Of a stretch of 64,000 bases of DNA, positions 62,201-64,000 are shown piece by piece (within the stretch, counting starts at the first letter, position 1; each line of letters opens with the position of its first letter). A program made the position numbers. Origin of the DNA: a plasmid. The DNA lies in the NCBI RefSeq assembly GCF_058153355.1, contig NZ_JBLWLY010000002.1; one strand, given 5' to 3'.

Positions 62201-64000
62201 GTGAACTGCGCCGCAGTAACGATATCCTTCGCCTGGCTTCCGCTTATTTTGCAAAGGCGGAGTTCGACCGCCTCTGGAAAAAATAATGCCACTGCTGGAT
62301 AAGCTGCGTGAGCAGTACGGGGTCGGACCGGTATGCAGTGAACTGCATATTGCCCCGTCAACGTATTACCACTGTCAGCAACAGCGACATCATCATGATA
62401 AACGCAGTGCCCGTGCGCAGCGCGATGACTGGCTGAAGAAAGAGATACTGCGCGTATACGATGAGAATCATCAGGTATACGCTGTGCGTAAAGTCTGGCA
62501 TCAGTTGTTACGGGAAGGTATCAGAGTGGCCAGATGCACTGTGGCACGTCTCATGGCGGTTATGGGGCTTGCCGGTGTTCTCCGGGGTAAAAAGGTCCAC
62601 ACTACCGTCAGCCGGAAAGCCGTTGCCGCAGGCGACCGCGTAAACCGTCATCAAGGCAATGTGCCGCGTACTCCGGGTGGCCCGCAGCGGCTGGTATACG
62701 TGGTGTCAGCGGCGGACAAGGATAAACACACGTCAGCAGTTCCGTCAGCACTGCGACAGCGTTGTCCGCAAGGCTTTTACCCAGTCCAGCGTTACGGTGC
62801 CCCACGCCTGACGGATGAACTGTGTGCTCTGGTTACCACTTTAACGTAAAAACCGTGGCAGCCAGTCTGCGCCGTCAGGAACTGAGCGCAAAAGCCTCCC
62901 AGAAGTTCAGCCCGATCAGTTACCGTGCACACGGCCTGCCTGTGTCAGAAAATCTGCTGACGCAGGATTTTTACGCCAGTGGCCCGAACCAGAAGTGGGC
63001 GGGAGACATCACGTACTATTACAGCTCACCGACTGCGGGGAAACACGGGGCGCTGGGTTATTGAAGGTGACCTGTCCAGCTACTTCGACACAGTACATCA
63101 CCGGCTGCTGATGAAAGCCGTCTGCCGCAGGATCAGTGATGCACGTTTTATGAGACTGCTGTGGAAAACGCCGTGTTGATGTTGGTCTCTTCCGGGCGGT
63201 CAGTGAAAGTATGCCACAGGGCGGTGTGATCTCGCCGTTGCTGTCGAACATCATACTGAATGAGTTCGACCAGTATCTGAATAAACGCTACCTGAGTGGA
63301 AAAGCCAGAAAGGATCGCTGGTACTGGAATCACAGTATCCAGCGAGGCCGAAGTACTGCTGTCAAAGAAAACTGGCAATGGAAACCTGCCGTTGCTTACT
63401 GTTGCTATGCCGATGACTGTGTGCCACGAAGGCGCGTCCTGGGGACGTGAGTCCCTGTGCAGCCATGCGGCACAAGAGATGAGGGAAGGCCCCTCGGTGT
63501 CGGCGTGCAGGCGCAGGCACCAAACCATCCACTGCTGCTGCATTTAAGAGATGTGGTGGTGAGCGAGATGGGAAAAGGTCGGACGTGAGCCGATCAGGTA
63601 TGGTTCGAAGAGACGAACGAAAGTGAACCGCTGATGATGTGTCGAAAGCGTATAGATGATGTCAAAACAATGGTGGAGTCGTTCCTGTGGGATATGTTTA
63701 CTGCCTGCGCGGCATCCGGCATAAAAGCGGCGTGAAGTCGATTCAGGCTCTTGTGGGGAACGTGGACCTGTCACCCCGACGTGAAGGGAGAAGCGCAAGT
63801 GGAAGCCCCATGAGCACCAGAGTACCAATGCGGGGTACAGGGACGGAGCACCAAGCGATTGCGCAGTAAACATGCTTGACAACTTAATTGGGGCCCCCTC
63901 TTCCTTTTATGGTGTAATTGTTTGATTGAATACTTCCGGGGATTTCAGTATGAAATGAAGTATATTTAATATACTTTACAAAAAGTTTGTATTAGTGGAA

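Follow-up and report, generated by a model that had tools for sequence, protein, structure and literature searches.

Group II introns lodged within other group II introns are already known from Methanosarcina and Thermosynechococcus, and the searchable literature calls bacterial twintrons rare. In Methanosarcina acetivorans, nested introns home site-specifically into other introns, which gives them a perpetual homing site without burdening host genes (Dai and Zimmerly, 2003, as summarised in PMC4424553). In Thermosynechococcus elongatus, the inner intron occupies a conserved site in the open reading frame (ORF) region of the outer intron and has spread by repeated independent insertions (PMC2882425); there, the inserted intron is ORF-less and its host, a close relative, is entered between the first and the second ATG. 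A 2012 survey of the Enterobacteriales reported IS3-like transposase genes as the homing site of E.c.I4, a bacterial class A intron, and noted that the homing site of P.l.I2, a class D (IIB3) intron of Photorhabdus luminescens, had "never been described" (PMC3522654). Here we describe a locus on a 64,000-nt stretch of plasmid DNA (contig NZ_JBLWLY010000002.1 of assembly GCF_058153355.1; hereafter the window, meaning the whole stretch analysed), which is part of the virulence plasmid (pINV) of Shigella and enteroinvasive E. coli (EIEC). At this locus a P.l.I2-like intron segment begins inside the reverse transcriptase (RT) gene of an E.c.I4-like intron. Judged by sequence comparison, it is very probably the remnant of a class D intron that inserted into the RT ORF of the E.c.I4-like intron, at the codons of the active-site motif YADD, and then decayed.

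Both fragments had already been catalogued in 2012. E.c.I4-tr4 was listed as a class A fragment of 405 bp, 84% identical to E.c.I4 (NC_004851 146273-146677), and S.s.F1 as a class D fragment of 432 bp, 90% identical to P.l.I2 of Photorhabdus luminescens (NC_004851 145845-146276; PMC3522654, Table S2/S3 for the former). The two sets of coordinates abut with a 4-bp overlap, the GTGC common to both parents. Neither "nested" nor "twintron" appears in the main text of that survey, and the nesting of the two fragments is not noted there. What is added here is the link between them, which assigns the P.l.I2 lineage a homing site, namely the codons for the active-site motif in other introns' RTs. As that system is presented in PMC4424553, the nested introns of Methanosarcina acetivorans are archaeal, whereas here the hosts are bacterial, fall in five Rfam domain I-IV families, and are entered at a site defined to the codon. 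The Thermosynechococcus arrangement involves close relatives, whereas the class D intron here carries an ORF and is aimed at the catalytic-motif codons of intron classes to which it is unrelated.

Two intron fragments and their junction

The locus comprises the following features (window positions; IBS, intron-binding site; EBS, exon-binding site):

62650-63017, plus strand: IS3-like transposase (orfB) fragment, the 5' exon of the outer intron (90% identity to IS3)
63018-63418, plus strand: RT pseudogene fragment of an E.c.I4-like (bacterial class A) group II intron, E.c.I4-tr4 (DNA identity, alignment, NCBIfam)
63406-63418, plus strand: predicted target site, with IBS2 TATGC (63406-63410), an unpaired C (63411, third base of the Ala codon) and IBS1 GATGACT (63412-63418); codons Tyr-Ala-Asp-Asp plus 1 nt
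63419-63850, plus strand: 5' part (domains I-III, 432 nt) of a class D, P.l.I2-like group II intron, S.s.F1 (RF01999, alignment to relatives)
63648-63652, plus strand: predicted EBS2 GCGTA, in the loop of a small domain I hairpin (position conserved in all YADD-resident relatives; covariation; fold)
63677-63683, plus strand: predicted EBS1 AGTCGTT, in the terminal loop of the next domain I hairpin (covariation in relatives)
63851-64000, no strand assigned: AT-rich DNA belonging to neither intron, which truncates the inner one (alignment to L012-L014 ends at 63850)

The inner element starts with GTGTGCCACGAAGG at 63419, the position given in the initial annotation, and this start is the 5' terminus (GUGYG type) of full-length class D relatives. 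The terminus is identical in L003 (E. coli) and L007 (Ralstonia); L008 (Rhizobium) begins GTGCGCC... and the window's other intron, at 51256, begins GTGTGTC.... RF01999 (group-II-D1D4-2) matched 63481-63599 over the full model (1-118) at 116.9 bits (E 4e-24; gathering score 36). The segment is colinear with the Citrobacter braakii intron L012, at 92% identity (gaps counted) over L012 nt 1-450, and is 89-90% identical to the Photorhabdus introns L013 and L014; compared with intact relatives it has lost 16 and 2 nt internally. Homology ends at 63850, short of the 63875 first proposed. No RF00029 (domain V) match was found downstream of 63419 in the window, so that the segment, lacking domains V/VI, is a fragment and not a working intron. 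The rest of the element, for which a search had been suggested, is not in the window either: tblastn with four class D RT proteins matched only the E.c.I3 RT of the intron at 51256 and the upstream RT fragment, and the right flank is unrelated AT-rich DNA. Among E. coli genomes and plasmids, a search for an intact composite or a close full-length copy returned only a short 87% fragment (L002) and relatives at no more than 75%. The 5' end, domain I architecture and guide loops are common to the window segment and its Photorhabdus and Citrobacter relatives; unlike P.l.I2, the window segment consists of the first 432 nt only, without ORF or domains V/VI and with internal deletions. One of the relatives, the full-length class D intron of L003 (E. 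coli KC-Dl-1 chromosome, 3963-5831), has a piece of a yeeU-type antitoxin gene on either side; this gene is annotated on the other strand, so that the intron is antisense to the gene that it interrupts.

The RT fragment immediately upstream had been described as starting at 63040, containing RT motifs 2-5 and ending right after the YADD codons in the same orientation as the intron segment. Its orientation and its end hold, the latter with one additional nucleotide (TAT GCC GAT GAC T, 63406-63418); its start lies at 63018, and it spans residues ~143-282 of the 502-aa L006 protein, i.e., RT motifs 3-5. About 140 codons are left, interrupted by a 1-nt and an 11-nt deletion that both break the frame. 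DNA identity by blastn was 85.0% to L004, 90.5% to L005 and 86.2% to L006, a match that runs on to 63424 since the GTGC at 63421-63424 fits both parents by chance. All three are complete introns that interrupt transposase genes of the IS3 family, L006 having an RF00029 match (domain V), and identities of 85-91% place the fragment in the E.c.I4 lineage. Like E.c.I4 itself, it stands at an E.c.I4-type homing position in an IS3-family transposase gene; unlike E.c.I4, it is a divergent variant, closest (90.5%) to the copies on hly/cnf2 plasmids such as L005. The protein search confirmed that the fragment is of intron type and not a retron RT. The best NCBIfam match for both of its pieces was TIGR04416 (group II RT/maturase), on which the full-length L006 RT scores 342 bits (cut-off 300). 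The 69-aa piece also gave weak matches to the retron St85 RT (E 8e-5) and to Drt2 (E 5e-4), which are 4-5 orders of magnitude weaker in E-value than TIGR04416.

The IS3-like fragment on the left ends ...GGAGACATCACGTACT (GAC ATC ACG TAC T), one base past the Tyr codon of the DITY motif, and its alignment with IS3 (L010) breaks exactly after TACT. Since the E.c.I4-like introns of L005 and L006 are inserted in this same register (...TATA/GTGTGC, the slash marking the insertion point), the outer intron sat at the homing site cognate to it, within a transposase gene of the IS3 family. Rfam searches found none of its RNA domains at this locus: 63017/63018 joins the IS3 exon directly to an internal RT position, and no domain V follows downstream. 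The first ~1.1 kb of the outer intron and both ends of its ORF are thus gone, the exon junction is exact, and no microhomology reproducing the observed sequence was found where IS3 meets the RT fragment. That both pieces had suffered deletions or truncation, as initially supposed, is borne out by the frame-breaking deletions in the RT fragment and the end of inner homology at 63850. The sole other E.c.I4 fragment checked for recurrent 5' truncation, E. coli K-12 ykfC, is truncated by IS5 on its 3' side and is uninformative on this point. Within the 5' RNA domains of this ykfC-containing E.c.I4-type fragment (L092, E. coli K-12 MG1655), which lies between IS911A and IS5A, the small RNA EyeA is annotated at 3081-3155.

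The two pieces belong to different introns. The 5' RNA of the E.c.I4-like introns L004-L006 gave no blastn match to 63419-63850, RF01999 was absent from L006 in the Rfam search, and the class D RTs encoded by relatives of the inner segment show just 34-46% amino-acid identity to the RT fragment. Nor is the inner segment a copy of the window intron at 51256, with which it had been compared by eye. RF01999 matched that intron at 51329-51445 (91.9 bits), and blastn aligned 63508-63667 with 51356-51513 (E 8e-16). The similarity is therefore significant, and since it amounts to 72.8% identity over 162 nt, with no further match, the two introns differ, as had been stated. The intron at 51256 (51256-55556) is of E.c.I3 type and class D; it interrupts a transposase gene of the IS66 family (IS679-like), the exon of which ends ...AACTGGCTCT, and it is split at ~52607-55075 by a second IS66-family element in opposite orientation. 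The YADD site of its RT (52439-52451, TACGCTGACGATA) is unoccupied.

Guide pairing and YxDD sites in related introns

In introns of the IIB type, two loops of domain I, EBS2 and EBS1, pair with the 5' exon. At the window junction all five EBS2/IBS2 pairs and all seven EBS1/IBS1 pairs can form, G-U counted, and both pairings are satisfied together at only 4 of the ~128,000 positions on the two strands of the 64-kb window, the real junction being among the four. The EBS1 loop lies after the conserved GUCAAAA motif. Its position is fixed because the 7-mers that relatives carry there covary with their own exons: those of L027, L040, L042, L050 and L075, and of the RmInt1-like L065 and L068, each pair 7/7 with an exon of different sequence. 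Predicted folds put EBS2 in a hairpin loop, and hairpins of the L012 and L025 types place the EBS1 7-mer in the loop; in the window copy the EBS1 stem is weakened by a C-to-A change. Folding-energy z-scores of these small hairpins are not significant alone, and the assignment is supported by covariation, not by energy. An alternative EBS2 register found by eye, GTATAG:CTATGC, was rejected, as GCGTA:TAYGC fits all relatives and covaries. The conserved motif GGCATCCGGCAT, which also scored in the pairing search, was dismissed as a guide because it is invariant.

The guides are matched to a protein motif in a way that leaves room for synonymous change. EBS2 (5'-GCGUA) pairs with TAYGC and EBS1 (5'-AGUCGUU) with GAYGAYN. 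A guide G thereby stands opposite each of the three synonymous pyrimidines (TAY, GAY, GAY), where C or U both pair, and the third base of the Ala codon, which is fourfold degenerate, is left unpaired between IBS2 and IBS1. Guides GCGTA and NGTCGTT are found throughout the YADD-resident relatives; introns in YMDD hosts carry EBS2 ATGTA and EBS1 CGTCGTT, and the one in a YQDD host carries TGGTA and TGTCGTT. In L012, an A at exon position -1 goes with a leading T in EBS1.

Relatives were collected with the RT of S.s.F2, a P.l.I2-like element of pSS_046 (L011), as query and one genome per species, and the best 80 loci were taken. RT identity in these ranged from 96% (Citrobacter braakii) through 88-89% (Photorhabdus) down to 58%. 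Both the 5' end and its flank could be located for 48 junctions, four of which belong to other introns in the same loci. Half of these junctions (24 of 48, the window locus included) encode Y/F-x-D-D(G) plus 1 nt, and 4 more are near variants; ~27 of the ~43 relatives sit at a YxDD plus 1 nt site in the RT genes of other introns. All five of the closest relatives (80-96% RT identity) do so, and the guides and register recur in relatives from many phyla. In 11 loci, Rfam matches to an outer intron domain were found around the inner RF01999 and domain V matches. An outer domain V lies downstream in 6 of these 11; L014, L015, L016, L074 and L090 have outer domains on both sides, and the sixth, L025, shows the downstream outer domain V. 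The outer domain I-IV matches, present in 10 of the 11 loci, fall in five different Rfam families. When the inner intron was removed at the end of its RF00029 match, the reading frame of the host RT was restored, with YADD followed by CNIYV, MVFTF, FVILL or MIVHC, among others. YxDD appears to be the normal homing site of the P.l.I2-like lineage rather than an odd accident.

A separate observation concerns the endosymbiont Candidatus Paracaedibacter symbiosus (L076-L080, L083), in whose genome one class D intron is present in at least six copies, each behind YADD, FADD or YCDD and every time in another RT gene, which suggests that homing into other introns has recently surged in that organism.

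A second junction of the same kind occurs on pINV. On pSS_046, the 3' end of S.s.F2, ...GGGTGACTCGAC (...GACTCGAC), is followed directly by TTGTAGTACATTG, which is the E.c.I3 RT immediately after TAC GCT GAC GAT A, i.e., YADD plus 1 nt. The register is that of the window junction and the host RT is a different one; both pINV junctions, in the E.c.I4-like and the E.c.I3 gene, would be relics of the YADD habit. S.s.F2 itself (in L011, NC_007385 132500-137500; reverse-complement coordinates 1806-3241) carries domain V and a class D RT ORF that is nearly complete and contains a single frameshift. Its 5' side adjoins an IS3-family orfB fragment at GGTACAGGGACGGAG, 15 nt that also form the end of S.s.F1 in the window. 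We considered S.s.F2 as the missing half of S.s.F1, a reading suggested by the 2012 table (PMC3522654), and rejected this as a simple split: the 3' exon of S.s.F2 is the E.c.I3 RT, not an E.c.I4-like one, and the 15 nt of GGTACAGGGACGGAG are present in both. Since S.s.F1 is flanked by an E.c.I4-like RT and S.s.F2 by the E.c.I3 RT, they lie in different host genes and are not the halves of one break. Therefore, pINV carries traces of at least two YADD insertions or of recombination between S.s.F1 and S.s.F2.

The studied class D intron, for comparison, is RmInt1 (Sr.me.I1) of Sinorhizobium, which has the same 5' end and guide-loop positions as the window segment and ~75% identity to it. Unlike the window intron, RmInt1 homes into the transposase gene of ISRm2011-2 and not into RT genes. 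The RmInt1-like copies L065 and L068 (Mesorhizobium) have EBS1 CTTCGTT on exon GATGAGG, and their IS target ...CACCTCGATGAGG resembles TATGCCGATGACT. The RmInt1-type target ...TGGCACCTCGATGAGG, which encodes W-H-L-D-E in a transposase (L065, L068 and L008 of Rhizobium), likewise resembles the YADD target TATGCCGATGACT, and L047 and L064, with EBS1 TTTCGTT, are inserted behind codons for H-A-D-E. On this evidence, a few guide changes may separate the IS-homing from the RT-homing introns of class D.

Origin of the composite

The inner intron would have arrived by ordinary retrohoming, in which an RNA-protein particle enters a DNA strand by reverse splicing and cDNA synthesis comes next; with an intron protein that has no endonuclease domain, this synthesis may have been primed at a replication fork. 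For such a lineage the YADD block would be a universal homing site, found wherever there are group II introns and kept constant by selection, and insertion there would be harmless to the cell. The ~1.1 kb missing from the outer intron most likely reflects a 5'-truncated insertion, in which an early-stopped cDNA was joined to the exon, or else a later deletion. Group II RTs switch templates readily at RNA 5' ends, and a 5'-truncated insertion would be in keeping with this ability. The inner intron would later have been cut after nt 432 by a rearrangement, and small deletions would then have accumulated. The remnant is now dead and would be capable of neither splicing nor mobility.

That the RT fragment came from another intron, which was then invaded, had been suggested at the outset, and three results support it: the junction at intron nt 1, the EBS/IBS pairing and the closest relatives, which are intact twintrons in the same codon register. 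In the window, nt 1 of the inner intron lies inside outer-intron sequence, directly after YADD plus 1 nt, as the 5' boundary of a twintron should. The corresponding 3' boundary, followed by the continuation of the host RT, is seen in the relatives and at the S.s.F2/E.c.I3 junction of pSS_046. Several points weigh on the other side. The 3' junction is deleted in the window copy, so that a single boundary shows the insertion into this RT gene, and the outer intron retains no RNA domains at the locus. Pairing in the relatives is imperfect in places, with a mismatch at exon position -1 in L014, L045, L076-L078 and L081. Searches turned up no ancestral plasmid in which the composite is intact or the E.c.I4-like RT at this locus uninterrupted, and we know of no mobility experiment for the P.l.I2 lineage. 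Finally, the 5'-truncation step of the outer intron, most likely as it is, is one that we infer.

Other origins of the arrangement are conceivable. The neighbourhood is a patchwork of IS3-family, IS629-like and IS91-associated fragments, both introns are truncated, and a 4-nt microhomology (GTGC) exists at the junction, all of which could suggest that unrelated intron fragments were brought together by chance, through IS-mediated deletion or illegitimate recombination. However, a random breakpoint would have had to hit intron nt 1 exactly and also one of the ~4 sites in 128,000 that pair with both guides, and the same codon register recurs in ~27 relatives and at the second pINV junction; chance juxtaposition is thus very unlikely. 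There is a slim chance that the composite arose as a chimeric cDNA, made when an RT that had reached the 5' end of a class D intron RNA switched to an E.c.I4-like RNA, the mosaic being integrated at the IS3 site. This would account in one event for both exact junctions, from the IS3 site to an internal RT position and from the RT to intron nt 1, and it would draw on the ease with which group II RTs are generally known to switch templates at RNA 5' ends. However, such a switch would have no reason to land on a site that pairs with EBS2 and EBS1, nor in the register of intact twintrons that have both intron ends and a continuing host ORF, and the extra non-templated bases that would favour it are not seen at the junctions. 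A chimeric cDNA is still a possible source of the left junction alone.

Two further explanations deny that one intron entered another. The pieces lie on the same strand, directly adjacent, and both are group II intron material, as would be expected of a single intron that was internally rearranged with its ORF segment moved upstream. This was the colinear alternative raised in the initial annotation; since the relatives of the RT piece have a different 5' RNA (no blastn match; L006 without RF01999) and those of the 5' piece encode another RT class (34-46% identical), it is effectively ruled out. The assignment of the pieces to class A and class D (PMC3522654) speaks against it as well. The weak St85 and Drt2 matches of the 69-aa piece could be taken to mean that the fragment derives from a retron or defence-type RT, with the intron merely in or beside it. 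This is scarcely credible given that the group II RT model is best for both pieces and that the fragment is 85-91% identical in DNA to RTs inside complete introns at the IS3-family homing site, one of them (L006) with its domain V. Invasion of the E.c.I4-like RT gene by the class D intron therefore remains by far the preferred explanation.

Beyond this locus, the YADD-homing pattern itself looks real. We propose tentatively, as a possibility that we would rate below even, that a large and phylogenetically widespread class D sublineage is a specialised parasite of other group II introns, which it would enter by means of guides suited to the YADD codons of any RT gene, and that this pattern is both real and previously undescribed. 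Such a parasite may home into RT genes of introns that belong to at least five RNA structural families and occur in Proteobacteria, Chlorobi, Firmicutes and others, with its guides retuned for YMDD and YQDD. A YADD homing rule was not found in the searchable full-text literature, which excluded Dai and Zimmerly 2002/2003, Simon et al. 2008 and the Calgary intron database. If the wider pattern is true, it would offer a clean example from nature of a mobile element whose RNA guides accommodate synonymous variation through their wobble design, it would explain the origin of many bacterial twintrons, and it would provide a testable rule for aiming a guide at a protein motif rather than at a single gene. 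Locally the importance is small, the remnant being a dead relic in an IS graveyard beside virA.

Setting on the virulence plasmid

The window carries icsA (56743-60051, minus strand) and, adjoining its start, the small RNA RnaG (60070-60189; full-length Rfam match, 158.5 bits), a known pINV feature; virA follows at 60544-61782, and IS3-family debris comes next after it. More than 100 pINV records (S. sonnei, S. flexneri, S. boydii, S. dysenteriae and EIEC) contain the 1 kb around the intron/RT junction at no less than 99% identity. The arrangement is an old, fixed feature of the pINV family.

To the right of the remnant, the first ~228 nt after 63850 are known from pINV records alone, and the segment farther on is common beside IS91-family elements; a search for an "empty" version of this right flank found no empty site. 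Past the end of the window (L001 7191-7556, equivalent to ~64170-64535 in window numbering) lies a hypothetical ORF of 121 aa, which has no NCBIfam match and is common beside IS91-family elements on many E. coli plasmids. To the left, the IS region at 61961-63017 is a chimera of at least three IS3-family pieces, including an IS629-like one (62559-62650) and the IS3-like one that borders the RT fragment (62650-63017), so that the chimeric IS629-like and IS3-like neighbours noted initially are indeed there. Within the first IS3-family fragment, an ALIL pseudoknot, the frameshift element of the IS3 family, was matched at 62241-62357 with 120.8 bits.

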